Of a stretch of 64,000 nucleotides of DNA, positions 1 through 40,381 are shown piece by piece. Within the stretch, counting starts at the first letter, position 1; each line of letters begins with the position of its first letter. The notes below the pieces were generated by a model. The model saw only the letters and a list, made by a program, of their open reading frames with translations, ran no database searches and was not told the origin of the DNA. The position numbers and the translations under genes are program-made. Source of the stretch: Promethearchaeota archaeon (GTDB lineage Archaea > Asgardarchaeota > Heimdallarchaeia > Hodarchaeales > Hodarchaeaceae); the NCBI GenBank assembly GCA_048938105.1, contig JBHLMN010000025.1, positions 1-64,000 of the forward strand. Reading direction: 5' to 3'.

Positions 1-1260
1 GCAACGATTCTGGATGCTGATGGAACCAGTTTTAAAGTCGCAAAAGGAGCTCCACAGGTCATTCTATCTCTAGTTTCCAATAAAGCAAAAATAAAAACTA
101 GGGTAAATAAGTTTGTTACTGTTTCAGCTCATAAGGGTTATCGGTCACTTGGTATTGCCAGAACAATTGATAGTGAAGAAAACTGGCAATTTGTAGGCAT
201 AATTGCTCTTTTTGATCCACCGCGTGAAGATTCAGCTGAGACAATCGCTATAGCTGAAACTATGGGATTGCAGGTTAAAATGATTACAGGAGATCATCTT
301 GCTATTGCCAAAGAGATCGCAGGACAAGTTAATTTGGGTTCCAATATTACTCGGTTCACCTCTTTTCAATCTAAAGCCGCCACGGGGGTGCCTCATTACA
401 TGGACAAAATTGATGGGTTTGCACAGGTTCTGCCAGAGGATAAATACCACATTGTCGATCATTTCCAACAAAATGAGCATATTGTTGCTATGACTGGAGA
501 TGGGGTTAATGATGCTCCTGCTTTAAAGAAGGCTGATGTGGGAATCGCGGTTGCGAATGCTACGGATGCAGCGAGATCTGCAGCGGATATTGTTCTTACT
601 AACCCAGGGCTTTCAATAATAATCGACGCCATAAAAGAAAGTCGAAAGATATTTCAGCGAATGACGAATTATGCGGTTTATCGTGTCACAGAAACGATTC
701 GGGTTGTAATTTTCATTACTTTAGCCATAATTATTTTCAATTTTTATCCTATAACACCTCTTATGATAGTCTTATTAGCCATTCTAAACGATGCACCGAT
801 TATGACTATTGCGTTTGACAATGTTAGATATTCAAACAAACCCGAAAAATGGGATATGTTAACCTTATTAAGTGTTGCCAGTTTTCTTGGAGTTATAGGA
901 GTTTTATCATCTTTTGGAATGCTATACATTGGGCAAGAAGTGTTACAACTGAATCGAGAGGTTCTCCAGTCCTTAATTTATCTAAAACTATCTGTCGCAG
1001 GTCATTTGACTTTGTTTGTGGCAAGGACTAAAGGTCCTTTTTGGTCATTAAAGCCAAATAAATTATTATTAATAGCGGTAATATCAACACAATTAATTGC
1101 TACAATAATCACAGTTTATGGAATATTGTTGCCTCCGATGGGCTGGGGATTGGCCTTGTTAGTATGGGGATATGCATTAATAGCGTTTATAATTACGGAT
1201 TACTTAAAAGTCCGTTTTTATAGATTATGTGGACGCAATGGCGTAAAATATCATAACTAA
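1..1260 (+). CDS. Plasma-membrane H+-transporting P-type ATPase (type IIIA), 5'-truncated by the window edge
   Basis: Frame 1 is open from base 1: KGAP, DPPR, MITGD, TGDGVNDAPALKKAD, and TM6 AILND (proton-binding Asp of P3A pumps). Confidence 0.92.
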   Translation, partial: ATILDADGTSFKVAKGAPQVILSLVSNKAKIKTRVNKFVTVSAHKGYRSLGIARTIDSEENWQFVGIIALFDPPREDSAETIAIAETMGLQVKMITGDHLAIAKEIAGQVNLGSNITRFTSFQSKAATGVPHYMDKIDGFAQVLPEDKYHIVDHFQQNEHIVAMTGDGVNDAPALKKADVGIAVANATDAARSAADIVLTNPGLSIIIDAIKESRKIFQRMTNYAVYRVTETIRVVIFITLAIIIFNFYPITPLMIVLLAILNDAPIMTIAFDNVRYSNKPEKWDMLTLLSVASFLGVIGVLSSFGMLYIGQEVLQLNREVLQSLIYLKLSVAGHLTLFVARTKGPFWSLKPNKLLLIAVISTQLIATIITVYGILLPPMGWGLALLVWGYALIAFIITDYLKVRFYRLCGRNGVKYHN

Positions 1261-1314: not shown

Positions 1315-1689
1315 ATGAGAGTTCATGATGAATATCATCACATTCATTTAAAAGCACCCATTCTTGAGATATGGACTACTCATGAAATGGTGGTTGAGCT
1401 ATTTAAGCTGCTGAAGTTGAATGGAGCAGAGATTTCAGAATTTGATAAAAACTTTGAAAAAAAACACTCAATTATTTCGATTAACAATGGCGCTTTCCAT
1501 ATTAGTATTGAGGAAGAAACGGGAGAAGATAACCAGATTATTAGCTTTTATGAATCTGATGCTTCTTTACACCCTCATTTATTACACAATGTGCTCGCTT
1601 TCGCGCAGGAAAAAGGTTTAAAGATAATAGCTAACAAGATAAATAAGTTACACCCTGAAGATTACCCTCCTCCTTCCCTTCATGGCTGA
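1315..1689 (+). CDS. Hypothetical protein with His-rich N-terminus
   Basis: 124-aa ORF closely spaced between the ATPase and nuoL; no family recognised. Confidence 0.6.
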   Translation: MRVHDEYHHIHLKAPILEIWTTHEMVVELFKLLKLNGAEISEFDKNFEKKHSIISINNGAFHISIEEETGEDNQIISFYESDASLHPHLLHNVLAFAQEKGLKIIANKINKLHPEDYPPPSLHG

Positions 1690-1746: not shown

Positions 1747-3915
1747 GTGAATATAATAGTATTACTCTTCGGAAATCTCACGATTCTAATCCCTCTCATC
1801 CCGATAATAGCTGCATTTATTGCATTATTCTTTGGCAATAAAATTGATCGCCCTCACCATGGATTTCTGGTTGCCTTCATCAGCCTTGGCTCCAGTCTTG
1901 TATTAACGCTTTTGGTTTCAGGAGAAGTTATATTCCAGCTCCTCTTCTTGGATGCATCTGTCGAGGAGGTCACGATGAGAGCTGTTATTGAATGGTTTCA
2001 TGTTGGAGGGATTTCTCTTGATATTGGTATTTTGCTAGATCCTTTAACAGCTGTTGTTAGTTTAATGGTAATATTAATCTCATTCTTGGTAGTAGTATAT
2101 AGTCGAAGTTATATGGCGCATGATGGCTCACCTCGCTACTATGCGGAGATTAATTTATTTGCCGCTGCAATGCTGGGTTTATGCCTTTCCCCTAACTTCA
2201 TTCAGTTTTTTCTTTTTTGGGAAATCATGGGGGTCTGTTCATACCTACTAATTGGTTATTATTATGACAAAGAGCTCGTTCCAGAAGGCCAACCTCATCC
2301 TGCATCTGCCGCGAAGAAAGCTTTTCTTACGACTAAAGTCGGAGATGTATTTTTATTTGTCGGAATCATCTTAATTTATCTAGAGACGCATACATTTGAT
2401 TTTTTGGAAATGCAGCGTTTGCTTGAAGAAGGGGTTATTAATATTGATCCAAATCTTATTATGCTTATTGCATTACTTATCTTTGCGGGAGCAATTGGAA
2501 AATCTGCCCAATTCCCGCTCCATGTTTGGCTTCCCGATGCAATGGCAGGTCCTACAACAGTTAGTTGTTTGATCCATGCAGCTACCATGGTCAAGGCTGG
2601 AATTTTCCTTGTTGCAAGAACCTATTTCATTTTTGAACAAGCAGATATGGCTAATAGTGGGTATACACTACTCGTAATAGGGCTAATAGGTGGAATAACA
2701 GCAATTATGGCTGCAACAATTGCTCTTGTCCAGACAGATATTAAAGGTGTTCTTGCTTATTCTACTATCAGTCAAATTGGCTTTATGACAATTGGCCTGG
2801 GTATTGAAGGAATGGCAGATTCGATATTTTATCTGATAAATCACGGAATCTTTAAAGCTTTACTATTTCTGTCAGCAGGATCAGTCATTCATGCTGCTAA
2901 TAGCCAAGACATAAGGGAGATGGGTGGATTGAAAGAGAAAATGCCTCATACTTGGAAGGTTATGTTGATTGGATCGTTATCACTAGCTGGGATTGGTAAT
3001 GGCTTCTTTAGTAAAGATGCAATCATTGAACGCGACTTATTTGAGGTCATAGATCCGCGTTTTCCTCTCCTCCATGAACAACTAGTGCTGCTGATCTGGC
3101 TATCAATGGTAATTACTACTTTTTTAACAGCGTTCTATATCTTTAGATTGTGGTTTTTGGTTTTTCCAGGAACCAATCGGCTACCTGGACATGAGATTCA
3201 TGAATCCGATCACTGGATGATAATACCATTATGGATATTGGCAATAATATCCTTATTGTTGACAGGTTACTATTCAATAGGATTATTTCTTTCTAGCATT
3301 TCATTCGAACATTTTCTTTTTCAGTGGTTGGAACCTGGTGTATCAATATTGGAGTTTGATTGGCTTGTTGGCATTTCATCAATTGTTTTAGCTGTTGGGG
3401 GAATCGCTTTCGCTTACTTAATCTACTACCCTCGAGGTAGTGCAAAAGTCAGTTTTTCAGAGGAAAAGGACATCAAATTTGAAGTCTATAAAAAAGATTC
3501 AATAATTGCTACCCAACGCGAAATCCGTTCAATGGTCAGTAAATTTAAACTATCTGTCTTTGGTGGAATGATCCTACGCCTGCTAGAAAAGGGTTATTAT
3601 ATCGATGATTTATATCTAACTTTTGTTTATTTTGTAGATATGAAATATTGTGCAATGATGAATTGGATTGAATTTCATGTTTTTGATGCGACTGTCCGAT
3701 TTATTGGTAAGCTTGGATATTGGCTCTGTGGTGTCTCAAAATGGTGTGATGAGAAAGTAATTGACCAAGGTATTATCCGAAATTGCGCCAATGGGGTGAT
3801 GAAAGGTGCGAAGTATTTACGATATATTCAGACAGGTGTCATAGAAGATTATTTATTTTACGGCCTAGTAGGAGCAATTGCACTTTTAATAATTGCTTTA
3901 GCATTATCAGGGTAA
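1747..3915 (+). CDS. nuoL: NADH-quinone oxidoreductase subunit L-like antiporter subunit, copy 1 (lateral helix ~78 aa)
   Basis: FWE..G..SY.LIG, GKSAQFPLHVWLPDAMAGPT.VS.LIHAATMV, LAYSTISQ, H..FKALLFL, FFSKD, C-terminal QTG plus TM16. The GTG at 1747 lies inside the AGGTGA RBS, so the real start may be ATA at 1756. Confidence 0.93.
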   Translation: MNIIVLLFGNLTILIPLIPIIAAFIALFFGNKIDRPHHGFLVAFISLGSSLVLTLLVSGEVIFQLLFLDASVEEVTMRAVIEWFHVGGISLDIGILLDPLTAVVSLMVILISFLVVVYSRSYMAHDGSPRYYAEINLFAAAMLGLCLSPNFIQFFLFWEIMGVCSYLLIGYYYDKELVPEGQPHPASAAKKAFLTTKVGDVFLFVGIILIYLETHTFDFLEMQRLLEEGVINIDPNLIMLIALLIFAGAIGKSAQFPLHVWLPDAMAGPTTVSCLIHAATMVKAGIFLVARTYFIFEQADMANSGYTLLVIGLIGGITAIMAATIALVQTDIKGVLAYSTISQIGFMTIGLGIEGMADSIFYLINHGIFKALLFLSAGSVIHAANSQDIREMGGLKEKMPHTWKVMLIGSLSLAGIGNGFFSKDAIIERDLFEVIDPRFPLLHEQLVLLIWLSMVITTFLTAFYIFRLWFLVFPGTNRLPGHEIHESDHWMIIPLWILAIISLLLTGYYSIGLFLSSISFEHFLFQWLEPGVSILEFDWLVGISSIVLAVGGIAFAYLIYYPRGSAKVSFSEEKDIKFEVYKKDSIIATQREIRSMVSKFKLSVFGGMILRLLEKGYYIDDLYLTFVYFVDMKYCAMMNWIEFHVFDATVRFIGKLGYWLCGVSKWCDEKVIDQGIIRNCANGVMKGAKYLRYIQTGVIEDYLFYGLVGAIALLIIALALSG
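1939..2309 (+). repeat. Near-identical ~370-bp tract shared by the two nuoL genes (partner 4538-4908)
   Basis: Direct DNA comparison at offset 2599 shows only a few substitutions. A second identical ~50-bp tract lies at 2497-2546 / 5096-5145. Confidence 0.9.
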
Positions 3916-4351
3916 TGATTGAAGTAAAATTCAACCAATATGTCTTCTAATAGGCTTTGTAGATTTTTTTATTCAACCAGAGCAATATGCGAGTTTACAG
4001 TGAAATTGATCCGCAACAATATATTGTTTTAAAAACAGATCAAATATTCTATCTTATCCCTTTAAGATGAGATATAAGACTCTATTCAACTGCTAATAAG
4101 CTTGTACGAGGTTTAACGACGGATCCTGTTACTCCCCTCCTTGATCTTCTTGCTAATTTGTTGGAAACTCCTCAAATATTTCAGGTTTGGATTTCAAATT
4201 TATATTGCGATACTTATCATTCATCACTACTTTCTTAAGCAATTCATAAGCTAAACAATATTGATAAGAAATACGGTTGTATAGCTATTCACAACTCACC
4301 AGGATACGATACAGCGTTACGATTTCTTTTGCTAGCATAAGGTGACAATTA

Positions 4352-6601
4352 ATGACTGATTTGATTTTTGGTAATTTAGCATTCTTGATTCCGATCATCC
4401 CAATCCTAGCAGCATTTTTTGCAATATTTTTCGGAAAATTTCTAGACAAAAAGGCCCATGGGAATATAATTGCCCTCATGGCGTTAGGAACAAGTTTAAT
4501 ACTGACTATTATTGTTTCAGGTGAGGTTATACTCCGCCTCCTCTTCTTGAACGCATCTGTCGAGGAGGTCACGATGAGAGATGTTATTGAATGGTTTCAT
4601 GTTGGAGGAGTTTCTCTTGATATTGGTATTCTGCTAGATCCTTTAACAGCTGTTGTTAGTTTAATGGTAGCATTAATCTCATTCTTGGTAGTAGTATATA
4701 GTCGAAGTTATATGGCGCATGATGGCTCACCTCGCTACTATGCGGAGATTAATTTATTTGCCGCTGCAATGCTGGGTTTATGCCTTTCCCCTAACTTCAT
4801 TCAGTTTTTTCTTTTTTGGGAAATCATGGGGGTCTGTTCATACCTACTAATTGGTTATTATTATGACAAAGAGCTCGTTCCAGAAGGCCAACCTCATCCT
4901 GCATCTGCGGCGAAGAAAGCATTCTTAACAACAAAGGTTGGAGACGTGTTTCTTTTTATGGCAATAATTCTTCTCTGGTTGGAAACCCATACAATCGATT
5001 TTATCGAGCTTCGTAATAAATTGGAGGAAGGAACAATTAATATTGAACCTATGTTGTTTTTCTTCATCGTTTTATTCATTTTTGCTGGAGCAGTTGGAAA
5101 ATCTGCCCAATTCCCGCTCCATGTTTGGCTTCCCGATGCAATGGCCGGGCCGACCACGGTTAGTTGTCTGATTCATTCAGCAACCATGGTCAAAGCAGGG
5201 ATTTTCTTAGTAGCACGTACTTATTTTTTGTTCGAGCATGTACATGAAGTGATTCATGAAAATACGTTATTAGTGGTTGCATTAATCGGTGGGATCACTG
5301 CTATTTTAGCTGGGACAATTGCTATTGTAAAAACTGATATTAAAGGCATATTGGCCTATTCTACTATTAGTCAATTAGGGTATATGACTATCGGTCTAGG
5401 TGTCGGAGGGATGGCTGTGTCAATTTTTCACGTTATTAATCACGGTATTTTCAAAGCATTGCTGTTCCTATCTGCTGGATCAGTTATCCATGGGTCAGGA
5501 ACTCAAGATATCCGAGAAATGGGGGGATTGAAAGAGAAAATGCCCCATACTTGGAAAGTAATGTTAATTGGATCCTTGTCTATTACTGGAATTGGTAATG
5601 GTTTTTTCAGTAAGGATGCGATAATTCTTCATGCTCTTCACCGTTGGCAAGATCCCTCATTTTCTATTTTCCATAATCAATTGGTCATGATCGTGTGGCT
5701 ATCTGCGGTCGTTACAGCTTTTGTTACAGCTTTTTACATGTTTAGGTTATGGTTTTTAGTCTTTCCAGGCAAGAATCGGCTACCTGAGTCTGAGATTCAT
5801 GAATCGGATAGATGGATGATAACTCCTTTATGGATATTAGGTATTATATCGTTAGGGATGGCAGCATATTATACAATAGGGTTATTCAACACGGATCTTT
5901 CTTTTGAACATGATCTTATTGCGTGGTTAGAGGGTACTCACGTGTACCCTCTTCCATTTAATTGGAATATGGCGTTTATAACGCTAATTCTATCAATTCT
6001 TGGAATCGCTTTGGCTTATTTAATCTATTATCCAAGGGCTGATGCACAAATCAGCTTTCCCAAGGATGAACCTTCATTCTACATTGATGTAGCTGAACCT
6101 GACAACCTCGCAAAATTACAGAGAAGAATACGCTCCTTTGCTCGTAAACTTAAATTAACTATATTTGGTCTAAGTATTCAACGGATTCTAGAAAATGGAT
6201 ACTATATTGATGACCTCTATCTCATTTTTGTCTATTTCATTAATGCCAAATTTTGCTCTACAATGAATTGGATAGAGGAAAACATCTTTGATGGTGCTGT
6301 TCGACTTGTTGGAAAAGTGGGATATGAACTCTGTAGCCTTTCTAAATGGTGGGATGAATATGTGGTTGAGGGATTGGTAAATTCAGTCGCACAAGCGTCC
6401 TATGCTTTGTGCGGGTTTGTAAAAGTTATTGATGAACGTGTGATTGATCACGGTATTATCCGAAATTCTGCTAAGAGAGTTATGAAAACAGGGGGCTACC
6501 TGCGTCGAATTCAAACAGGTGTAGTAGAAAATTACGCTTTCTATACTCTCTTGGGAGCAATCTTTCTCATCTTGGCTGCAATCTATTTAGTAGGGGGATA
6601 A
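4352..6601 (+). CDS. nuoL: NADH-quinone oxidoreductase subunit L-like antiporter subunit, copy 2 (lateral helix ~104 aa)
   Basis: Same NuoL motifs as copy 1; AAGGTGA RBS before the ATG; one extra 26-aa repeat in the C-terminal helix. Confidence 0.93.
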   Translation: MTDLIFGNLAFLIPIIPILAAFFAIFFGKFLDKKAHGNIIALMALGTSLILTIIVSGEVILRLLFLNASVEEVTMRDVIEWFHVGGVSLDIGILLDPLTAVVSLMVALISFLVVVYSRSYMAHDGSPRYYAEINLFAAAMLGLCLSPNFIQFFLFWEIMGVCSYLLIGYYYDKELVPEGQPHPASAAKKAFLTTKVGDVFLFMAIILLWLETHTIDFIELRNKLEEGTINIEPMLFFFIVLFIFAGAVGKSAQFPLHVWLPDAMAGPTTVSCLIHSATMVKAGIFLVARTYFLFEHVHEVIHENTLLVVALIGGITAILAGTIAIVKTDIKGILAYSTISQLGYMTIGLGVGGMAVSIFHVINHGIFKALLFLSAGSVIHGSGTQDIREMGGLKEKMPHTWKVMLIGSLSITGIGNGFFSKDAIILHALHRWQDPSFSIFHNQLVMIVWLSAVVTAFVTAFYMFRLWFLVFPGKNRLPESEIHESDRWMITPLWILGIISLGMAAYYTIGLFNTDLSFEHDLIAWLEGTHVYPLPFNWNMAFITLILSILGIALAYLIYYPRADAQISFPKDEPSFYIDVAEPDNLAKLQRRIRSFARKLKLTIFGLSIQRILENGYYIDDLYLIFVYFINAKFCSTMNWIEENIFDGAVRLVGKVGYELCSLSKWWDEYVVEGLVNSVAQASYALCGFVKVIDERVIDHGIIRNSAKRVMKTGGYLRRIQTGVVENYAFYTLLGAIFLILAAIYLVGG

Positions 6602-6962: not shown

Positions 6963-8159
6963 ATGAAATACATTGTTATAGGCAATGGAGTAGCTGGTGT
7001 TTCTGCTATTCAAGTCTTAGCGCAGGAAAAATCATCTAATTCGACAATACTCCAATTTACTGATGAACCTTTTCCAGGTTATTATAACCGCCCAAAAATC
7101 CCAGCTTTCATTGGTAACAATAAGATAGCTGTGAAAGACATCATTGCTTATAATCTTGACTGGTACAAAAAATTGGAAGTAGATTTACATACTCAAGAAA
7201 AAATAGAGAAAATTAATATCAAAACAAATGAAGTTTTGACTCACAAAACAGCTTATCCGTTCGAACGATTGTTAATAGCAACTGGGGCAGATTGTTGGTG
7301 CCCTCCTATTGAGGGAAGACAATTAAATCATTTTTATGAGGTAAGAAGTCTCAGTGATGCGTTAAAAATTCGTGATCGATTTAGAGTAAGTAAAAAGGCA
7401 GTGATTATAGGAGGTGGAGTTCTTGGGCTTGAAATTGCTAGTGCAGCTGTCAAACAAGGCCAAGAAACAACTGTTATTGAATTCTTTCCTTATCTATTAC
7501 CAAGACAATTGGATGTGGAAGGAGGAAACATCCTCAGAAAAATACTTGAAGAACGTGGGATTAAAATCTATGTAAAAAAAGAAGTTCAGAAAATTGCTGG
7601 AGAAAGTGAAGTGGAACAGGTCATTACTAAAGATGGTTTAGAAATCTCAACAGATTTGGTACTGGCTTGTACGGGTATAAAACCTAGAGTAGAACTGGTA
7701 AAGGATTTCTTGAAAATTAATCGAGGTATTATTGTTAATGATTACCTAGAAACATCACAAAAAAATATTTTTGCTTCAGGAGATTGCGCAGAACATAATG
7801 GAATGGTATATGGGCTTATTCCTCCTAGTATCCAACAAGCAAGAATCGCGGCCCATAATATGATTAATATGGAGACTGAATATAAGGGTTCGAAGATTTC
7901 TTCAACTCTCAAAGTAACTGATTTATTTTTGAGTTCTTTTGGTTACACTGGAAAAGAACCTGAATTAGGTTATAGCATAAGAAAATATGTTAATGAGAAT
8001 GAATATGTTAAACTATTTGTTCACAATGATAAAATTAAAGCAGCCATTATTTTAGGTTTCAAAAGAGCTATCCCTCTAATTAGAAATATATTTACAGAAG
8101 AGAAATCCGTTTCAGACAATGAAACCAAAATAAGAAAAGTTCTACCAGAGCTAAATTGA
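6963..8159 (+). CDS. FAD-dependent NAD(P)H:rubredoxin oxidoreductase-like (NirB/NROR family)
   Basis: GNGVAG, YYNRPK, ATGA, GGGVLGLE, GD motifs; near rubredoxin and fprA. Confidence 0.85.
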   Translation: MKYIVIGNGVAGVSAIQVLAQEKSSNSTILQFTDEPFPGYYNRPKIPAFIGNNKIAVKDIIAYNLDWYKKLEVDLHTQEKIEKINIKTNEVLTHKTAYPFERLLIATGADCWCPPIEGRQLNHFYEVRSLSDALKIRDRFRVSKKAVIIGGGVLGLEIASAAVKQGQETTVIEFFPYLLPRQLDVEGGNILRKILEERGIKIYVKKEVQKIAGESEVEQVITKDGLEISTDLVLACTGIKPRVELVKDFLKINRGIIVNDYLETSQKNIFASGDCAEHNGMVYGLIPPSIQQARIAAHNMINMETEYKGSKISSTLKVTDLFLSSFGYTGKEPELGYSIRKYVNENEYVKLFVHNDKIKAAIILGFKRAIPLIRNIFTEEKSVSDNETKIRKVLPELN

Positions 8160-9471: not shown

Positions 9472-10695
9472 TTGCCAGCAATTAAGCTAACAGATACAAT
9501 TTTTTGGATTGGAGTTAATGATCGAACAACTGATCTTTTTGAAGGCCTCTGGCCAATAAATGATGTTGGAGTTTCGTATAATAGCTATATCATTAAAGGA
9601 GAGAAGATTGCCCTCATAGATTTGGCTAAAGGAATTAAAGTGGATGATTACTTAAGTCAGGTTGAAGAAGTAGTAGAACCTTCTAATATAGACTACATTG
9701 TTATCAATCATGTCGAACCTGATCATACAGGATTAATCAAAATAATATCTAGATTAGCGCCCAGCGCCACATTTATTGGAACCGAAAAAGCTAAAAATAT
9801 GATTGCTGATTTCTATCAACTGGAAGACGCAAAAAATATCAAATGGAAGGTAGTTACTAATGGAGACGAAATTCCTCTAGGAAATCATCAACTGGTGTTT
9901 TATGAAGCACCATTTGTGCATTGGCCAGAAACAATGGTTACATATGATAAAAAATCTCAGATATTATTCTCTTGTGACGCATTTGGAAGTTATGGGGCAT
10001 TAAGCGGAAAAATATTTGACGATGACAAAGGTATTGACCAACACTTCTATGAAGAAGAAGCCTTACGTTATTACACTAATATAGTGGCGAAATTTTCTAG
10101 ATTTGTAATAAAGGTCATTAATTCATTAGAGGGATTAGAAATTTCAATGATCGCACCAAGTCATGGTCTAGTATGGAGAAAAAACCCAGAACGAATAGTT
10201 GAACTCTATAAACGTTGGGCCGAATATGCAGATGACCCTACTGGGGGTGAAACTGGGATCACTCTTGTTTATGCTTCTATGTATGGTAATACAAATAAAA
10301 TGATGAATGCTATTGCTCAAGGAATAGGAAAAACAGGAATCCCACTCAAGATATTTGATGCTGCACGAACACATGTTTCTTTTATTTTACCTTATCTGTG
10401 GAAAAATAAAGGTGTCATCATTGGAGCTCCGACATATGAAGTAAATATTTTTCCCCCGATTGCATATATTCTGGATATGGCATTACGAAAAAGAATTCAT
10501 AACAAGAAAACAGCTTTTTTTGGTTCTTATGGATGGAATGACGGGGCAAAGAGAGATTATGAAAAAATCGCTGAAAAACTAAAATGGGACATCTTGGAAG
10601 CCTACGACTTTATTGGTGGGCCTTCTGAATTAGATCTAAAAAAAGGAGAAGATTTTGGAGAAAGAATAGCGAAATTGATTATGAAATCTGACTAA
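9472..10695 (+). CDS. fprA: Flavodiiron protein (FprA, A-type flavoprotein)
   Basis: HVEPDH, VHWPE, SCDAFG, PSHG, and flavodoxin motifs SMYGNT and GSYGW. Confidence 0.93.
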   Translation: MPAIKLTDTIFWIGVNDRTTDLFEGLWPINDVGVSYNSYIIKGEKIALIDLAKGIKVDDYLSQVEEVVEPSNIDYIVINHVEPDHTGLIKIISRLAPSATFIGTEKAKNMIADFYQLEDAKNIKWKVVTNGDEIPLGNHQLVFYEAPFVHWPETMVTYDKKSQILFSCDAFGSYGALSGKIFDDDKGIDQHFYEEEALRYYTNIVAKFSRFVIKVINSLEGLEISMIAPSHGLVWRKNPERIVELYKRWAEYADDPTGGETGITLVYASMYGNTNKMMNAIAQGIGKTGIPLKIFDAARTHVSFILPYLWKNKGVIIGAPTYEVNIFPPIAYILDMALRKRIHNKKTAFFGSYGWNDGAKRDYEKIAEKLKWDILEAYDFIGGPSELDLKKGEDFGERIAKLIMKSD

Positions 10696-19928: not shown

Positions 19929-20393
19929 GTACACTATTTTCCCTATTGTTAGCTCAGTTTCAATGATATAAATTTAGGTTATTTTTCTAAAGAAATAAAC
20001 CATATATCAATAACGTAGTTTAAAAATTGATATTTAATGAAGATAAAGCGAAAAATCTTTTTCTTTCCTTGAAGAATGCATAAAATTCTTTCTCTTTTAA
20101 CTTTTATTTTGGAGATTAAAGGAGCTCAGGTTTCTTTGCTAACTATGGTTAAATGTATTATGAACAAAATTCGCGAAACATTTTAAAATGATAGTCGCGT
20201 TTCTCCCAATTGTTTCTCTAATTTATCAATTTCTTTAATGTAAAATATAAAAAACATTTAAATCATGTTATTGTTACATTAACAGAATGGACTGAGAAAT
20301 CAATCTGTACTCAATTAAAATCAATAAAAAAACAATGATTCACCTATTACATTATGATAATGGGTGAGGATTGTACTTTACGGCGGTATATTA

Positions 20394-21785
20394 ATGAATG
20401 ACCAAGAAGAAATACTAATACAAAAAACTAGATGGAATAGTCGCAGGTTTCTCCTTTTGTATTGGTTCGCTTTCGTTTTCGTAGGAACTGCAGCAGCAGC
20501 TGGTTTAGGAACTAGTGTTCTAAATCCTAAAATAAAGATTAACAAAGTCGATCACAGTTCGCTCAACTTACCAAGTGAATGGGGTCCAGAAGACTGCACA
20601 GGTTCCATGTGTCATAATGATACAGTCGCTTCCTGGAATGAGACAGGCCATTCAAGAGCTGGGACTCTCTTGCCAAATGGCTCATGGCTTGTAGGAGACG
20701 ATCATATCTACAACGATTCCTTTTTCCGCTCCTGTTATGGAGGTGATGAAGCATTAATTCAATGCCATACTACTCGATACAACGAAACAGATGGAACCTA
20801 CTGGACTGGAACCAACGGTGTTAGCTGTGCGGCGTGTCATGAAGAACCAGGTATGATAGATTATGCAGCTGACAACTGCCAAATCTGTCACGAGTATTCA
20901 AATAATAATATAACTGGAGACTATCAGATGAGTGCACATAGTAAATCATATGAAGATTTGTTAGCAGGTGGATATGCACCTAGCAGCTGTTTACACTGTA
21001 TGACTGGTCAAGGGGTATATATGGATGTGACAGGTCAAGAAGACATCTTGACTTCGATAAACTGTGGAACTTGTCATGATCCACATGATGCAACTAATGA
21101 AGCCCAACTCAGAGAAACCGAGGTTAATGAACTTTGTGGCACTTGTCACAGTAGTACAGTAGAAGTATTCGAGGATTCCCGCAATAAACACTTGAACTAC
21201 GTAGATGAAGCTTGTGCTTCATGTCATGGATATCAGCTAGACCCTAAACCCTGGAACCCCAATAATGCGAGGATTAACCATTCATGGACGATTAATTTCG
21301 AAGATGCCTGTGGACAATGTCACACAGGTCAAGTCGACACACGAAAAGACATGTTAAATTATATCCAGGGGAACTTCGAATCTCTGAATGCCACATACTA
21401 CACCCAACTCGCTAATGTCACTGCTAAAGTTGATGAAGCAAATGGGACAGCTGGAGTGGATCTGTGCACAATCGAAGATGCGTATGCTCTGATCGAAGAA
21501 GCTGAAGAACTGATTTATCCAGTTGAACATGATGGAAGTTATGGTTTCCATAATCCCACAATGATGGAAGATAATTTTGCACTGGCCCTAGCCAAACTAG
21601 ATGAGGCATATGTTAAAGCCGAGACTGCTATTGGTGGTGAACAAACTAGTTCTACAAGCACTACTGGATCTACTAGTTCAATTACAACTTCAGGTGGTAC
21701 ACCTGGATTCGAGTTGTCCACTATCTTGGCAGTAATCAGCCTCGTATCAACAGCAACAATCTTATTACACAGAAAGAGACGCTAA
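20394..21785 (+). CDS. Cell-surface multiheme cytochrome c (NrfA/c552-like clade), copy 1, with PGF-type sorting tail
   Basis: Six CXXCH plus CX4CH, CX9CH and CLHCM; helical C-domain with DGSYGFHNP; Ser/Thr linker; TPGFE-TM-RKRR. Confidence 0.9.
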   Translation: MNDQEEILIQKTRWNSRRFLLLYWFAFVFVGTAAAAGLGTSVLNPKIKINKVDHSSLNLPSEWGPEDCTGSMCHNDTVASWNETGHSRAGTLLPNGSWLVGDDHIYNDSFFRSCYGGDEALIQCHTTRYNETDGTYWTGTNGVSCAACHEEPGMIDYAADNCQICHEYSNNNITGDYQMSAHSKSYEDLLAGGYAPSSCLHCMTGQGVYMDVTGQEDILTSINCGTCHDPHDATNEAQLRETEVNELCGTCHSSTVEVFEDSRNKHLNYVDEACASCHGYQLDPKPWNPNNARINHSWTINFEDACGQCHTGQVDTRKDMLNYIQGNFESLNATYYTQLANVTAKVDEANGTAGVDLCTIEDAYALIEEAEELIYPVEHDGSYGFHNPTMMEDNFALALAKLDEAYVKAETAIGGEQTSSTSTTGSTSSITTSGGTPGFELSTILAVISLVSTATILLHRKRR

Positions 21786-21819
21786 ACACTTGGTTGGATC
21801 CATCTCTAAAATAAAAAAC

Positions 21820-21856
21820 GATAACAGCTCATTCGCTGTTATCTTTACCCTTTTTC
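21820..21856 (+). terminator. Hairpin plus T-tract downstream of cytochrome 1
   Basis: GATAACAGC-tcattc-GCTGTTATC followed by TTTACCCTTTTT. Confidence 0.6.
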
Positions 21857-22016
21857 CAGAAGTGTGGGGAATGAGGAAGGTTTCGTTGTAAAACATGAGT
21901 CTATCGAGCTTGCTTGAAGTGTTTTCCAAGATTTAATTTTTGCTTTTAAAACTGGTACTTTTTCAATAATCCGCTATAAATTACGATTGTCTTGATACCC
22001 CTTCAGAAAAACTGAG

Positions 22017-24191
22017 ATGATTAAATATATGCAAAATAGTTTATCTACACTACTAAAGTGTAATCAAAGGTATCTTTTCTTGCCTTTACTAGTATTACTT
22101 ATCATAATCCCTTCGATTATGATGTTATCTCCGACTAGTAAAAGGTTGGATTTTGTAGAGTCTCAAAAAAATACTTCTAGTATTTCTCCTAAAGTGAGTA
22201 ACAACGAACAAGACAACAATCCTGATGCTTATTTTCCAAATTTTCTTTATTATTCAATTTCAGTGGCAAATGCCCTGATTGATTACTTATACGACAATGA
22301 TTCTGGTGGATTCTTCCGCTCAGTTAACCAGTTCTGGTCTAATAATTCCATTAATATGTTGAAATATTCTTATGATCAAGCACAAGCTATTCTTGCATTA
22401 TTAAAACTTTCTGATGCTGTAATTAATGATTCTGAACGTGATTTTGCGATTCATTTTGCTGAATTAATCGGTAATTATATGATAACACGTCTTTATGACA
22501 ATGAAGTTGGAGGATTCTATACATCCACTAGTAGTTCATATAAAAAGCCAGGAGTGAATGGAAAAGTTATTCAGTCTCTCCTCTCCCTATACAAGACCAC
22601 TGGCAACATTTCTTATAGAGATAAAGCAATTGAAACTTTTGAGTTTATAGACAATTTTGGTTGGGATAGTGAAAGTGGTGGTTATGTTTATCTACTGTCT
22701 CATAGTGGTCTCATTGCATCATCGAATCCCAGTTCAGCCGATCCTTATGATCCTAACTCAAAAAAAGTAGATCATAATGCTATTATGGGGGAAGCCTTAC
22801 TTGAACTATATCTTTTAACTTCTGATCCTTCATACATTTCTAAAGCAACAGAACTTTACCAGTTAATCAACACCTCTTCCAGAGACTATACCACTGAATT
22901 GTTCTATATTGGATTTAACAATGGTGGAATTGTTGAGCCGGATTATACTGACATTTTTATAAATTCCCTGATGCTAGAGTTTCTATCTCAGCTCTACAAC
23001 ATAACTGGGGATTTGACTTACTTTTATGATTTTCAATCTTTAATAAATGCTGTTCTTTTAAATTTTTGGGACTCTTCCAATGGAGGATTTTTTGCCACAT
23101 TCCCCTATAATAGTCAAGTTGAGAAAGACGAGAAGAAATACACAGAGAGGCAATTTTATGCAATTAGAGCTCTTGATGAGGCCTACAAGTTGACAAACAA
23201 TAACTTATATTATAATCTCATTCTGGATGTAATGGAATTTCTAAATAATAATCTCTATGATAATGTTCATGAGGGATACTACCTATTAGCAAACGCTGAT
23301 GGAACAGAAGGAGAACAAAACTGGAAAGATAAATATTCTGTTACTCAATCCCTAGCTATCTACGAATTAGCCAATCTCTGGCTTTATAGTAAGCCTAGTG
23401 TTCTCAATGCTCTCTGGTCCCCTTTAAATCCACGACCTTCAGATGCTGTTACGATTAGGATTGCAGCGTTTGATGCGGATGGTCTTTCCACCGTATTGTT
23501 GAATTATTCTATGAATAACCAACCCTACAAGTTAATAGAAATGACCACCAATGAACTAATAGGGAATATGTATGATTTTACCTTTGATTCTCAACCACAT
23601 GGCACAACAGTGAATTTTAACATCATTGTTAATGATACCTTAGGGAATATCGTTGTTCGAGAGTCATATTTCTTTGTTTGGGAGAATGATATTTTACCTC
23701 CTCATATTATGTTATTGGGAATAAATCCAAGTAACGAGATTTTTGTCAGTTCTAATTTTAGTATAACTGTGAGTGTACATGATAATCCTCCCCAAGGAGA
23801 TGTCACGAGTGTTCGTATGTATTATAAAGAAACGGGTCAATCAAAGTGGGCATCCAGGGCATTATTTCGGTTAGGTGATTATTTGTGGAGGATAGAATTC
23901 CCCGATGGTTTCAAAAAACCTAATAGATATGAATACTTCTTTGAAGCAATTGATAATCGAGGAAATTTTGGATTTAGTCCTTATTTTTACTTAGAAGTCT
24001 ATGGCCATCCAAAAAACTTCCCATTAACTGCATTTATTGGTGGCCTTTTTTTCATATTATTTATTGTTCCTGCAGGGATTATTGTTTACAAAGAATACAG
24101 TAAAAATAGTGCTCGTACAACCTTAAGAAACATTAAGAAGACACGCAATGTAAAACGGAGGAAAAAGAGAGGGACAAGACGTATAACGTAG
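22017..24191 (+). CDS. Membrane-anchored (alpha/alpha)6-barrel protein (AGE/YyaL-SPATA20-like) with Ig-like domains, copy 1
   Basis: Repeated LYD...GGF[FY] barrel motifs, KY.YDQA, two beta-rich domains, N- and C-terminal TM segments, basic tail. Confidence 0.75.
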   Translation: MIKYMQNSLSTLLKCNQRYLFLPLLVLLIIIPSIMMLSPTSKRLDFVESQKNTSSISPKVSNNEQDNNPDAYFPNFLYYSISVANALIDYLYDNDSGGFFRSVNQFWSNNSINMLKYSYDQAQAILALLKLSDAVINDSERDFAIHFAELIGNYMITRLYDNEVGGFYTSTSSSYKKPGVNGKVIQSLLSLYKTTGNISYRDKAIETFEFIDNFGWDSESGGYVYLLSHSGLIASSNPSSADPYDPNSKKVDHNAIMGEALLELYLLTSDPSYISKATELYQLINTSSRDYTTELFYIGFNNGGIVEPDYTDIFINSLMLEFLSQLYNITGDLTYFYDFQSLINAVLLNFWDSSNGGFFATFPYNSQVEKDEKKYTERQFYAIRALDEAYKLTNNNLYYNLILDVMEFLNNNLYDNVHEGYYLLANADGTEGEQNWKDKYSVTQSLAIYELANLWLYSKPSVLNALWSPLNPRPSDAVTIRIAAFDADGLSTVLLNYSMNNQPYKLIEMTTNELIGNMYDFTFDSQPHGTTVNFNIIVNDTLGNIVVRESYFFVWENDILPPHIMLLGINPSNEIFVSSNFSITVSVHDNPPQGDVTSVRMYYKETGQSKWASRALFRLGDYLWRIEFPDGFKKPNRYEYFFEAIDNRGNFGFSPYFYLEVYGHPKNFPLTAFIGGLFFILFIVPAGIIVYKEYSKNSARTTLRNIKKTRNVKRRKKRGTRRIT

Positions 24192-24208
24192 TGAATGGAG
24201 AAATTACA

Positions 24209-26422
24209 ATGATTTATATTGATTTTGGAGCTTTTGGGATGGATTTAGGTATGTTGATATTGCTTTTTAGCCTAGTAGCCCTTTTGATTGATGTCTTTTT
24301 AGTGATTTATGGTGGATACATTGAAAAATGGGAAATTTATTCAGAAATAAGCCTTTCTGCTGGTATTCTGGCTATTATCATCTCTTTCCTATATTTTAGT
24401 TATTCAGTTATAACAGCTGATTATCACTTCACCTATGTGAGTGATCATATTAACAATGATATGGACTTTTTCTTAAGACTATCAGCCATTTGGTCTGGAC
24501 AGTCTGGATCTTATTTCTTTTGGACATTTCTAGTTGTAATGGTTTATTCAATCTTCAGGCTGATGTTCAAAGAGTACGCGCATGAGACAATCTTTTGGCG
24601 AGCGTTTGTCTTATCAGCTCTTCAAACATCTGTTTTGGTGGCCTTAACACTGCTAAGTGATCCGTTTAAAATAAATGATGGTGTTTTTTCCGATGGTATT
24701 GGATTAAATCCATTATTAATGACGTATTGGAATCTCATACATCCTCCAATTGTTTTCATTGGTTATGCTCTATGTTTAATTCCAATGGTCATTGGAATAA
24801 CAAGAATCTCTATTCTTAAAAATGGTGAGTTGCCAGAATTTGAAGGTAAAGAAAAATTAGATAATTTCTTTGAATTTTTAGTTTCATTTGCATGGCTTAT
24901 ATTAAGCCTTGGAATAATAATTGGTGCTTATTGGGCTTATATGACTCTCGGTTGGGGTGGTTTCTGGGCATGGGATCCCGTAGAAACAGCTTCGTTGATA
25001 CCCTGGCTTTTTATAACCCTTTATTTCCATGGAAAACCTTTTTTTGGCAAAACTAAATACCTAGAAAATTACATTATTAGCATGAGTTACATTGGTGCTT
25101 TGTTTACTACATATTTAACAAGAAGTAATATAATTTCAAGTGTACACGCATTTCAATCCGAAGCAACTTTAGAAAATATTCTAAAGATTTTTATCCCAGA
25201 AAATAGTTTTTTTATGTCCATTATATTGCGATTCATTCCTGATGAGAAGATGTTATTACTTTTTATTGTCATAATAAGCACTTTTCTTATCCCACATTAT
25301 TTTGGAATTAGGAGTAAGGATATAACAAGGATTCCAATCTATTTTGAAAGAAAAGATTTTCAAGGATCAAGATCTCATATAACTGCCTTAAAAATCTCCT
25401 TTATTTCAGGTCTTATAGGTTCTTATATTATCATCATAGGTTTGATAACCCCTACTATTTATGATATTGTTGGATATATAATCACTTTCAGTCCAGAGGG
25501 AGTTGGTTCAAGCATTGTTGTAGACCAATTGTATTTTAATACAGTTATAACGATTTTTGGAGGTATAATGTTACTTGCGCAGTTTTTCTGTACTTTTTAT
25601 CCGAGATTGGATGTTAAGAAGAAGTTTATGTTAATGATAGGAGGATTAACAGCAGGAATCACATTTTCAATAGGAGGTTTCTTATATCGAAGTGGTTTTC
25701 TTAATCAGATTCTTGGAGACAAAAACCTAATACTTCTCTTATTCAATAACTTCTGGACAACTAGTGACAAAGCAAACTTAGTAATTCCTCTTCTATTTCT
25801 GGGAGTGGTTGGATTGCTAGTAGAGTTTTTAAAAGTGGCTTTTAAAGAAGAAAAGAATGTTATCCGAAAAACATCGCAAATACTGTTACATCTTTCTTTC
25901 TTAGTAATTCTCCTTGGTGCATTAATGAGTGCAAATATGACTGTTTCTAGTCAAATTTTGGGTCAAGAAGGAGGTGAATATAAAATTCCAGGAACTTCTG
26001 TAACAATTATTATTATAGATTTAGATAGAAGATTTCCTGAATCAGGTTTCAATCGAGTCGAATATGATACACAATTCATGTTGTCATCAGATGCACGAAT
26101 CATTGCATTTGGAATCAGTAGACTCGCTTATGATAAGATAAACCGAATGGATCATGAGGTGACAATAATTAACGATCTCTTTTCTAACATTTACATCGTA
26201 ACTAGTGGGGTTTTTGAAAACCCCATTTCTGGAATTTTTGAGGCTGCTTCCCTCCAGATTAAAGTTATACCATATATTAACATTTTGTGGGTAGGATGTC
26301 TTCTCCTCCTTTTTGCTATCCTCCCCTTGACCATAGGGAGATTTATTATCCTGAAAAAGACCTTATCTTTTAGAGAAATAGAACAGAAAGATGTTAAAAC
26401 GAAAATAGTGCCAATTAAATGA
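24209..26422 (+). CDS. ccmF: Cytochrome c heme lyase CcmF, copy 1
   Basis: GLNPLL, IHPP, WAY.TLGWGGFWAWDPVETAS (WWD domain), SSVHAF, LLHLS. Confidence 0.93.
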   Translation: MIYIDFGAFGMDLGMLILLFSLVALLIDVFLVIYGGYIEKWEIYSEISLSAGILAIIISFLYFSYSVITADYHFTYVSDHINNDMDFFLRLSAIWSGQSGSYFFWTFLVVMVYSIFRLMFKEYAHETIFWRAFVLSALQTSVLVALTLLSDPFKINDGVFSDGIGLNPLLMTYWNLIHPPIVFIGYALCLIPMVIGITRISILKNGELPEFEGKEKLDNFFEFLVSFAWLILSLGIIIGAYWAYMTLGWGGFWAWDPVETASLIPWLFITLYFHGKPFFGKTKYLENYIISMSYIGALFTTYLTRSNIISSVHAFQSEATLENILKIFIPENSFFMSIILRFIPDEKMLLLFIVIISTFLIPHYFGIRSKDITRIPIYFERKDFQGSRSHITALKISFISGLIGSYIIIIGLITPTIYDIVGYIITFSPEGVGSSIVVDQLYFNTVITIFGGIMLLAQFFCTFYPRLDVKKKFMLMIGGLTAGITFSIGGFLYRSGFLNQILGDKNLILLLFNNFWTTSDKANLVIPLLFLGVVGLLVEFLKVAFKEEKNVIRKTSQILLHLSFLVILLGALMSANMTVSSQILGQEGGEYKIPGTSVTIIIIDLDRRFPESGFNRVEYDTQFMLSSDARIIAFGISRLAYDKINRMDHEVTIINDLFSNIYIVTSGVFENPISGIFEAASLQIKVIPYINILWVGCLLLLFAILPLTIGRFIILKKTLSFREIEQKDVKTKIVPIK

Positions 26423-36253: not shown

Positions 36254-36337
36254 ACAGAGCCTATTCTCAAAAATTTAAATCAAAACAGAAATTTGCAGTA
36301 ACTTTAAATGAAATCCAAAAAAAATGGCGGAATTTTA

Positions 36338-37900
36338 ATGAATGACCAAGAAGAGATCTTAGTACGCCAAAGTAAGTGGAACGGTCGCAGAGTTGTATTG
36401 CTCTACTGGTTTGCTATTGTCTTCATTGGAACAGCAACAGCTGCTGGTGTTGGAGCTGGTGTTTTAAATCCAAAATACCAGTTTAAAGTGGAACAATACA
36501 CCCATGACGATAAATTCGGCGATGGAACTATCTGGCATCCCGAAGAATGTGCTACTTGCCATCCAGCGGAATACGAAGGTTGGAACCAAACTCTCCACTC
36601 TTATCTTTTCGCTGAGTATAATGAATCTTATTTGATTCATTATAGCGGTACTTACCAGAACACAACCGCATTCCTGGAAAGTAAAGGCTGTTGCCATGTA
36701 ACAAATTGGTACAATGATACTTCTGTTGACCCTTCAGGTGAACTTAAAGTTTGGGATTATGGAGTGACTTGTGCAGCTTGTCACGAGGATCCGGATAATG
36801 GATTTGATCCCGTGGGTTATATGCCATTCGGTCCAGCATCCTACCCCTGTGGTGGTTATGGTATGAAGGGTATGCCACTATGTCATATCCCCCGTGGTGT
36901 TTCTCAGTTTGATATGATTGGTCCTCACTCCCAAGCGCTCGATGATTTGCTTGCTAGTGACGATATAGACGATTCTTGTCTCCATTGTATGACTGGAAAT
37001 GGTCTTGTCTATGGTTATGGCCCAGGTGAAAACAAAAGCTATGAGTACGGAGAACTTATCGGTATCGAGTGTTATGTATGCCACAATCCTATGGGTGTTT
37101 CCAATGAACTGTATAAAGAGGATAAATATCCTAATCTTACTCTTAATTCTACACTGAGAGCAAATAGTATTCCTGAACTTTGTGGAGAATGTCACAGCGG
37201 AGATTACGACTCATCTTATGCAATGATAACAGATACTACTGTTCAAGGTCCCCATTCAAACTTCGATTGCACACAATGTCATGGATATTACTTAGATCCT
37301 GCAACTGAGTCGCAAAATGCTTCTTTTGAGCTCAATCATACATGGACACTCAAACTTCCTGATGCGTGTGCTACTTGCCATCTTCCTACGGGTACAAACA
37401 TGAGTGCTCTCAATGCCACAATAATGGCAACTACTATGGAATCTAGGATGGAGCTCCTTGAGGGCATCCAAGAAGATATTGCAGCATTAGTAGATACAGT
37501 TGAAACTGAGATAACAGCCACCACCACCAAAGCAGACGAAGCTGCAGCAGTTTCAGGTGCTGATGAGGATGAAATCGCTGAAATTTACCTCTTGATTGAA
37601 GAAGCTAAAGCCTTGGTCGAGTTTGTTGAAGCCGATCCAGCAGGTGGATTCCACAATCCTGATCTCACGGAAGTAAAACTACAGTTGGCATTGACTAAGT
37701 TATCTTGGGCGAAAACAGCTGCAGAAGCTATAATCACTCCCCCAGGTACCACCACTGAAGAACCGTTAACAGTAACCAAAACCACACATGCAACTGAAAC
37801 TATAACTGAAACCACAACTGCAGCAGCAACAGCTATTGGTATCTTAGCAGTACTCAGTATCCTCAGTGCAACCGTTCTTTTCCAGAAAAAAAGGCGTTAA
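36338..37900 (+). CDS. Cell-surface multiheme cytochrome c (NrfA/c552-like clade), copy 2
   Basis: Six CXXCH plus CCH, CX10CH and CLHCM; DPAGGFHNP; Thr-rich linker, TM, KKRR (no PGF). Confidence 0.9.
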   Translation: MNDQEEILVRQSKWNGRRVVLLYWFAIVFIGTATAAGVGAGVLNPKYQFKVEQYTHDDKFGDGTIWHPEECATCHPAEYEGWNQTLHSYLFAEYNESYLIHYSGTYQNTTAFLESKGCCHVTNWYNDTSVDPSGELKVWDYGVTCAACHEDPDNGFDPVGYMPFGPASYPCGGYGMKGMPLCHIPRGVSQFDMIGPHSQALDDLLASDDIDDSCLHCMTGNGLVYGYGPGENKSYEYGELIGIECYVCHNPMGVSNELYKEDKYPNLTLNSTLRANSIPELCGECHSGDYDSSYAMITDTTVQGPHSNFDCTQCHGYYLDPATESQNASFELNHTWTLKLPDACATCHLPTGTNMSALNATIMATTMESRMELLEGIQEDIAALVDTVETEITATTTKADEAAAVSGADEDEIAEIYLLIEEAKALVEFVEADPAGGFHNPDLTEVKLQLALTKLSWAKTAAEAIITPPGTTTEEPLTVTKTTHATETITETTTAAATAIGILAVLSILSATVLFQKKRR

Positions 37901-37944
37901 ATCTAGATAACAAATTTCGCATCATAGTTCATTTCCAAAGCAAG

Positions 37945-37983
37945 AACAGCAGTTTTCTGCTGTTTCTTTTGCCTTTTTTTTCC
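37945..37983 (+). terminator. Hairpin plus T-tract downstream of cytochrome 2
   Basis: AACAGCAG-tttt-CTGCTGTT followed by TCTTTTGCCTTTTTTTT. Confidence 0.6.
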
Positions 37984-38141
37984 AAGTGTTCGGGAGCTGA
38001 GGTAAGTATCGCTTTTTTTGCTTTCTATGATATTATCTCTAATTTAAAAGAATTAAAAGAAACTAATTCCCGTCTTATCATAAAATAACTGCCTTCATCA
38101 TAAAATAATTGTGTGAAATTACTAAAGAGATGGAATAATTC

Positions 38142-40379: not shown

Positions 40380-40381
40380 TA

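Follow-up and report, generated by a model that had tools for sequence, protein, structure and literature searches.

Two neighboring stand-alone NuoL paralogues of a Hodarchaeales archaeon differ by one 26-residue unit of the lateral helix and may be alternative distal subunits of one complex I core

Introduction

In NuoL, a lateral, or clamp, helix (HL) is the sole mechanical tie between the pump modules of complex I, and the number of these modules has been predicted from its length. Here we analyze a stretch of 64,000 nucleotides from a Promethearchaeota archaeon of the order Hodarchaeales (Heimdallarchaeia; GenBank assembly GCA_048938105.1, contig JBHLMN010000025.1, positions 1 to 64,000), referred to as the window, in which two neighboring genes encode NuoL paralogues with helices of different length. 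Why does a genome carry two such subunits side by side, and does the length of their helices tell how many pumps the enzyme contains? A first-pass annotation of the sequence had proposed a "gear shift," according to which the copy with the shorter helix fits one extra antiporter module and the other copy fits two, so that their exchange would change the H+/e- stoichiometry of the enzyme. The respiratory chain of Heimdallarchaeia, to which these organisms belong, has been discussed in connection with the origin of eukaryotes (bioRxiv 10.1101/2024.07.04.601786), which gives the architecture of their complex I a wider interest.

The two genes are called S (nuoL-S, positions 1747 to 3915) and L (nuoL-L, positions 4352 to 6601). 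They lie on contig C50 of the genome to which the window belongs, G000, which is 99% complete and which, going by the names of homologues, falls within Heimdallarchaeia/Hodarchaeales of the Asgard archaea. The explanation that we favor, and to which we give an even chance of being correct, is that L would be the housekeeping distal pump, moved to a new location, and that S could take its place on a common core as an alternative distal subunit, with the C-terminal membrane anchor (TM16) of S docking approximately one module closer.

Results

Both genes are on the forward strand. S has a GTG start and encodes 722 amino acids, with a spacing of 71 residues between the two anchor motifs of the helix and two units of the D..VIDG type, whereas L encodes 749 amino acids, with a spacing of 97 residues and three units, which is the usual length in its clade. 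The two proteins share 69% identity, and the sole large gap in their BLASTP alignment comprises 26 residues in the C-terminal helix. Both match the Proton_antipo_N (PF00662) and Proton_antipo_M (PF00361) domains and pass the NCBIfam model TIGR01974 (NDH_I_L) with 509 bits (S) and 513 bits (L), the cut-off being 407.5; the scores with the equivalog model NF005141 were 534 and 544 bits, slightly below its cut-off of 556. NdhF (6hum_F) is the best match of both proteins among solved structures, and a search of such structures with the C-terminal 183 amino acids returned chance matches only. As judged from their sequences, both proteins have the C-terminal amphipathic lateral helix followed by the TM16 anchor that is found in NuoL. 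The HL core of S, from the IDDLY anchor to QTG (anchors I619 and Q695, placed by alignment), is encoded at positions 3601 to 3837 (forward strand) and is directly followed by TM16 (positions 3838 to 3912, forward strand). The unit that S lacks corresponds to approximately D668 to I693 of L (positions 6353 to 6430, forward strand), as indicated by the MAFFT alignment and the BLASTP gap. In this respect the first-pass annotation, which had described two NuoL paralogues that differ by one 26-residue unit, proved accurate to the nucleotide: residues D620 to G697 of S are encoded at 3604 to 3837 (78 codons) and D620 to G723 of L at 6209 to 6520 (104 codons), and the glycine codons at 6293 and 6371 are those of G648 and G674 of L. 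Continuity across the junction of S and L is confirmed by contigs that come from three sequencing runs (two studies) and span it.

A clue to the role of this pair comes from the nuo operon of the same genome. The annotation had rightly placed the two genes apart from any such operon and next to an H+-ATPase gene: the operon is on contig C56 and the pair on C50, so that S and L are not encoded between nuoK and nuoM. The order of genes in the operon is nuoA-B-C-D-H-I-J-K-stub-M-N, the body of nuoL having been lost. The stub in the slot between nuoK and nuoM is an open reading frame (ORF) of 73 amino acids (L007:13046-13267, minus strand) that is composed of the nuoL start, the equivalent of residues 594 to 609, the last HL unit, and TM16. 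Over its final 58 residues, the stub shares about 90% identity with the tail of P0007, a NuoL of the operon type. A stub of 73 amino acids occupies the same slot in a second genome, G021 (L016:5951-6172, minus strand), with deletion end points that differ from those in G000, and a third lineage has a stub of 75 amino acids in this position (L017:945-1172) with a junction of the G021 type. There are thus two deletion architectures across three lineages, both in frame. Over the 56 codons shared by the stubs of G000 and G021, the dN/dS ratio is 0.14, a value to which some divergence predating the deletions may contribute. Four further short sequences were discarded as stubs: P0131 starts 80 nucleotides from a contig end, and P0127, P0130, and P0132 begin within full-length NuoL sequence on contigs of approximately 1 to 2 kb; in each case, a cut nuoL gene is the probable explanation. 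G000 and G021 are the only ones of 23 genomes of the order in which the S and L pair is present, and both lack the full L-type frame contiguous with M and N that most of the others possess. That the pair occurs where the body of the operon nuoL has been lost is our principal reason for regarding the stand-alone genes as the source of the L subunit, and we conclude that S and L most likely replace the operon gene. Two L-type paralogues are present for one core that has no L of its own, and swapping of NuoL is plausible since the operon contains no intact nuoL.

The helix in which the two copies differ is built from repeats. In L, the units at residues 641 to 666, 667 to 692, and 693 to 718 share the pattern [DE]E.v[IV][DE]G.v...Y.LC, with 8 of the 26 positions being identical between units 1 and 2; the sequence being repetitive, the unit boundaries may slide by a few residues. 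Anchor spacing, defined as the number of residues from the xDxxY motif to QTG, was measured in approximately 120 homologues and is quantised, with values of 44 to 46, 70 to 71, and 97, that is, in steps of 26. Because the spacing falls into such discrete steps, the repeat is more than a chance resemblance. The shortest class comprises NuoLs of the Bacillus group, Bacteroidota, and Ignavibacteria; the intermediate class is found in several lineages and includes S; and the longest is represented by about 50 Heimdallarchaeial clusters, among them L. An alignment with a standard-length reference set (NuoLs of the Bacillus group, Bacteroidota, Ignavibacteria, and Methanomassiliicoccaceae) showed that the length grows by entire D..V[IV]DG.V units and revealed an additional insertion of approximately 33 amino acids between TM15 and the helix. 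The proposal that the helix is made of 26-residue repeats is therefore confirmed at the protein level, and the span of approximately 50 residues that the annotation gave for standard NuoL comes close to the measured anchor spacing of about 45. In an AlphaFold2 (AF2) monomer model of L (mean pLDDT, 81), the helix is continuous over residues 616 to 676; the model contains helices at 585 to 720 and 725 to 748, but pLDDT is below 50 at residues 672 to 730, which correspond to units 2 and 3. The annotation had also taken a lengthening by approximately 26 residues as the mark of "2M" complex I, and an HL insertion of 26 residues is indeed described as such in PMC9040806, as far as that article reports the work of Chadwick et al. 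(2018).

To what extent helix length and number of pumps go together can be read from the antiporter genes. A profile search for PF00361 retrieved six genes from G000, namely, S, L, nuoM, nuoN, and a pair designated L' and M'. One nuoM and one nuoN are available for the Nuo enzyme, both in the C56 operon. The L' and M' genes belong to a separate complex I-like cluster on contig C4 (B-CD-H-I-J-K-L'-M'), the D-like subunit of which also matches the NiFe-hydrogenase family. Regarding the two hallmarks of 2M-type complexes, an HL at least about 26 residues longer than standard was found (71 in S and 97 in L versus 44 to 46), but a second nuoM, that is, a fourth antiporter-like gene in the same complex, was not found in this 99% complete genome. 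The same picture emerges from related genomes. A closed genome of 4.9 Mb from a relative contains the operon A-B-C-D-H-I-J-K-L-M-N, with an L of 757 amino acids, and its L, M, and N are the only three PF00361 genes of that genome. P0007, which is 75% identical overall to L and among its nearest relatives of the operon type, sits in a plain A-B-C-D-H-I-J-K-L-M-N operon, and in most of the 23 genomes searched, an L of 746 to 775 amino acids has a single M and a single N as neighbors. By these comparisons, the 97-residue helix is found throughout the clade, of which it is probably the ancestral form, and occurs in plain nuoA-N operons. Outside the clade, the operon of P0081 combines a helix extended by 26 residues with L plus three further PF00361 genes, including a second nuoM, and P0091 and P0062 have a helix of this length with M and N only. 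An insertion in the helix has likewise been reported for complexes that have no more than the standard three pumps (PMC9040806).

Judged by gene content, helix length does not count pump modules here, and it reflects no extra antiporter modules, because none is encoded. The annotation had named, as the first half of what would speak against it, a genome with only one NuoM/NuoN set, and this is what we found. With a single set, and with the 97-residue helix in plain operons, the assignment of one extra module to S and two to L is not upheld, and a changed H+/e- stoichiometry therefore does not follow from the genes present. Of the gear shift, the modular helix and a plausible exchange of the L subunit stand, and the use of helix length as a module count falls. 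One could still suppose that helix length sets the number of clamped modules, that the product of the single nuoM or nuoN is used repeatedly, and that the choice between S and L shifts the H+/e- ratio. Such a scheme would agree with the spacing steps of 26, with the extended helix in the 2M-type operon of P0081, and with L' (656 amino acids, L008:9977-11947), in which only 17 residues separate YLDTIY from QTG, one unit below canonical NuoL, in agreement with the single antiporter-like partner M'. We nevertheless regard it as very unlikely, since extra antiporter-like genes are lacking in this genome and in the closed relative, the spacing of 97 accompanies a plain L-M-N set in most genomes of the order that were searched, and the helix extended by 26 residues occurs with only M and N elsewhere (P0091, P0062, and the published three-pump complexes mentioned above). 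Several copies of one M in a complex I would, to our knowledge, be unprecedented.

Among the conserved residues of the proton path, we inspected the TM5 Glu, the TM7 Lys, the His switch, the His/His/Lys set of TM11, and the Lys-Asp pair of TM12. E157, K250, H275, H364, K368, K421, and D422 are invariant and are present in both S and L. The first His of TM11 (H360 in L) is different: all 62 of the other aligned NuoLs have His here, and the four proteins of the S clade have Tyr, His, Tyr, and Phe. In S itself the position is Tyr362 (positions 2830 to 2832 of the window), a replacement that, from what the sequence suggests, may alter the lateral proton path. Except for His254, Lys229, and Lys342 (Escherichia coli numbering), which are named in PMC13358369, the correspondence to the E. 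coli numbering was obtained by an offset. The roles assigned to the residues follow that article and general background.

S carries approximately 15 private changes at conserved columns and has a branch length of 0.24. This long branch, the absence of the otherwise invariant His from all but one of the four proteins of the S clade, and the tight linkage of S to an ATPase and a regulator in three assemblies could also mean that S works outside complex I, either as a moonlighting cation/H+ transporter tied to the H+-ATPase or as a redundant copy under relaxed selection, with L alone replacing the operon gene. We consider this unlikely. The orthologues of S are full length and 79 to 86% identical; all four retain HL and TM16, whose only use is to dock onto neighboring subunits; and no change affects any of the lysines, the glutamate, or the His-switch residue. 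Furthermore, there is no partner of the DabA type: a profile search for DabA (PF10070) found none in the 99% complete genome. The possibility that S or L is a DabB was likewise dismissed, given that there is no PF10070 match and that both proteins nest among operon-encoded NuoLs in the tree.

The assemblies that contain the gene pair show 84% identity between S copies, 86% between L copies, and approximately 70% between S and L, so that the duplication is older than the splits of these assemblies and both copies were kept. In a maximum-likelihood tree, S and its orthologues P0057, P0059, and P0060 form a clade with 100% support, which nests inside the clade with a spacing of 97, beside the stand-alone L. 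S and stand-alone L have four derived residues in common, each in a column where the operon forms are at least 95% conserved, and the S type was seen in four clusters only. Most likely, a three-unit gene was duplicated in tandem, and one unit was afterward lost from S. Gene conversion between the two copies was considered because residues 101 to 200 are 98 to 100% identical within a genome; this segment is also 94 to 96% identical between genomes, and strong constraint suffices as an explanation.

A further possibility is that both proteins are neighbors in one complex with four pumps (N-M-S-L). The distal L would then have to span one subunit more than S, which would account for the difference of one unit, and this difference is exactly the increment of 26 residues that is tied to one extra subunit in 2M complexes (PMC9040806). 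A helix extended by 26 residues is present in P0081, whose operon contains three PF00361 genes besides L; S and L are tandem, co-oriented, and always adjacent in three assemblies, which suggests co-expression, and the pump residues are kept in both copies. However, the ancestral single L already had three units with only M and N, and the distal L of a four-pump complex should then have four; S is also found without a downstream L on one contig (P0057). We know of no complex I with two L-type subunits that each have their own HL and TM16, and, taken together, these points leave the four-pump arrangement a small chance.

The two genes belong to a cassette that consists of an ArsR-type regulator, a type IIIA H+-ATPase, an optional small ORF, S, and L, and that is also found in G021 and in a European Nucleotide Archive (ENA) scaffold (ERZ). 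The regulator is upstream of the ATPase in the latter two; in G000 it would lie past the 5' end of the window. The first member of the cassette visible in the window is the 3' part (419 codons, positions 1 to 1260, forward strand) of the gene for this plasma-membrane-type ATPase, with Pfam Hydrolase/HAD matches; it is 95% identical to residues 398 to 816 of the orthologue in G021, which at full length scores 1040 bits with TIGR01647 (cut-off, 615.5). Between the ATPase gene and S lies an ORF of 124 amino acids (positions 1315 to 1689, forward strand), without Pfam or NCBIfam match and with no function assigned; an orthologue of 126 amino acids is at the equivalent place in G021, and none is present in the ENA scaffold. 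S and L are separated by a spacer of 436 nucleotides (positions 3916 to 4351), the pairwise identity of which to the other two assemblies is 62 to 77% as compared with 79 to 88% for coding DNA. We rejected the spacer as a regulatory RNA: the three-way column identity is 82%, but in view of the low pairwise values, the lack of an Rfam match and of a conserved ORF, and the lack of a convincing consensus fold, there is no case for one.

Downstream of L, the window encodes a rubredoxin-reductase-type flavoprotein (positions 6963 to 8159; Pyr_redox_2 and Rubredoxin_C) and a flavodiiron-type protein (positions 9472 to 10695; ODP/metallo-beta-lactamase and flavodoxin domains), likely an O2/NO-scavenging pair; this neighborhood is not conserved in G021. 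Farther on are two paralogous three-gene cassettes (positions 20364 to 26422 and 36308 to 42643), each of which encodes a multiheme cytochrome c with c552/NrfA-like and c554 matches (473 and 530 amino acids), a protein of 724 or 745 amino acids with weak matches to GlcNAc-2-epimerase-like (alpha/alpha)6 folds, and a CcmF-type cytochrome c assembly protein (743 and 753 amino acids). Two observations were made in other genomes. P0076 (752 amino acids, spacing of 174) was set aside as a complex I subunit, as it adjoins a DabA-family gene of 1266 amino acids; the two form a DAB-type pair (L021:1866-7973) with an unusually long spacer, unrelated to the clade of the window. An assembly labeled Thorarchaeota contains a trio of L (729 amino acids, helix extended by 26 residues), M, and N without nuoA-K upstream (L020:10001-15261), that is, antiporter modules split from the operon.

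Discussion

What best unites these data is a pair of alternative distal subunits. L keeps the ancestral three-unit helix together with every conserved pump residue, as would be expected of a housekeeping L subunit that has moved out of its operon. S would be the derived sister copy, shorter by exactly one 26-residue unit and, in three of four members of its clade, altered at the invariant His. We infer that the two would be used differentially, with S entering the shared core when conditions differ, possibly along with the adjoining H+-ATPase, and that the exchange would work as in cyanobacterial NDH-1 isoforms, which swap NdhF/NdhD paralogues. As S has one unit fewer, its TM16 must dock closer than that of L, by a predicted distance of approximately 39 A (26 x 1.5 A) toward the L body.

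Several points weigh against this explanation. (i) The topology in which S is sister to all long forms is not rejected by the AU test (p = 0.32), so that the direction of the indel is judged from the tree, from the four residues that S shares with stand-alone L, and from the restricted occurrence of S. (ii) The S orthologue P0057 is in another context, without ATPase and without a downstream L. (iii) Genes that are co-oriented and always adjacent suit co-expression as well as switching. (iv) It does not account for a three-unit helix alongside only M and N. (v) The conserved stub could sit in the TM16 docking site, which would complicate a plain replacement.

The stub and the long helix would both find a place if the HL of the Hodarchaeales type were a strap of four segments, formed by the IDDLY segment and the three units, that clamps the whole membrane arm. 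It would pass approximately 78 A beyond the canonical docking site, over NuoK/J/A toward NuoH, which is geometrically possible. The last unit and TM16 would then be an autonomous anchoring module, and for this reason survive as a selected operon gene of 73 amino acids; S, one unit short, would complete the full strap with the stub, and L would bring its own. The outcome would be two differently coupled enzyme forms, either S plus stub or L, and, if true, this would concern an archaeon of the group closest to the eukaryotes. We rate this arrangement as quite improbable.

The clade breaks the rule that relates helix length to pump number, since its helix is two units longer although M and N are the only partners. 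It also offers a natural experiment within one lineage, namely, two L subunits that are exactly one unit apart and a free-standing piece of the tail. Exchange of distal-subunit paralogues and helix modules of 26 residues were already known; the combination of a clade-wide helix extended by 52 residues without extra pumps, a conserved tandem pair one unit apart, and an operon stub was not found in the literature searched.

The sets of NdhF and NdhD paralogues in cyanobacteria provide a close parallel to an exchange of S and L. Distal L-type paralogues are exchanged on one core in NDH-1L, NDH-1MS, and related isoforms, which yields complexes that differ in function (PMC6358722, PMC7021789), and, as here, several of these paralogues are encoded away from the core genes. 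Unlike the archaeon, in which only the L-type subunit is duplicated, cyanobacteria also swap the D-type partner and add CupA/CupB; in our case the copies differ by a helix module and would be used differentially. With the NuoL of 2M complex I (Nitrospira and others), as PMC9040806 presents it after Chadwick et al. (2018), the window proteins share the in-register HL insertion of 26 residues, S having a spacing of 71 versus 45. According to the same account 2M operons encode a second NuoM, whereas this genome and its relatives encode none, and L has two extra units and not one. The NuoLs of Complex_I_1 and Complex_I_2 of "Ca. Manganitrophaceae" resemble those described here in having an HL insertion despite the standard three pumps (PMC9040806), but they are bacterial, have one extra unit, and come with no reported tandem paralogues or operon stub. 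Canonical NuoL/Nqo12/ND5, finally, has the same domain content, the pump residues, and HL with TM16, and its operon position is that of the other members of the clade; S and L differ from it in an HL that is 26 or 52 residues longer, in the insertion of approximately 33 residues between TM15 and the helix, and in their location outside the operon, where a separate gene for a 73-residue tail occupies the slot of nuoL.

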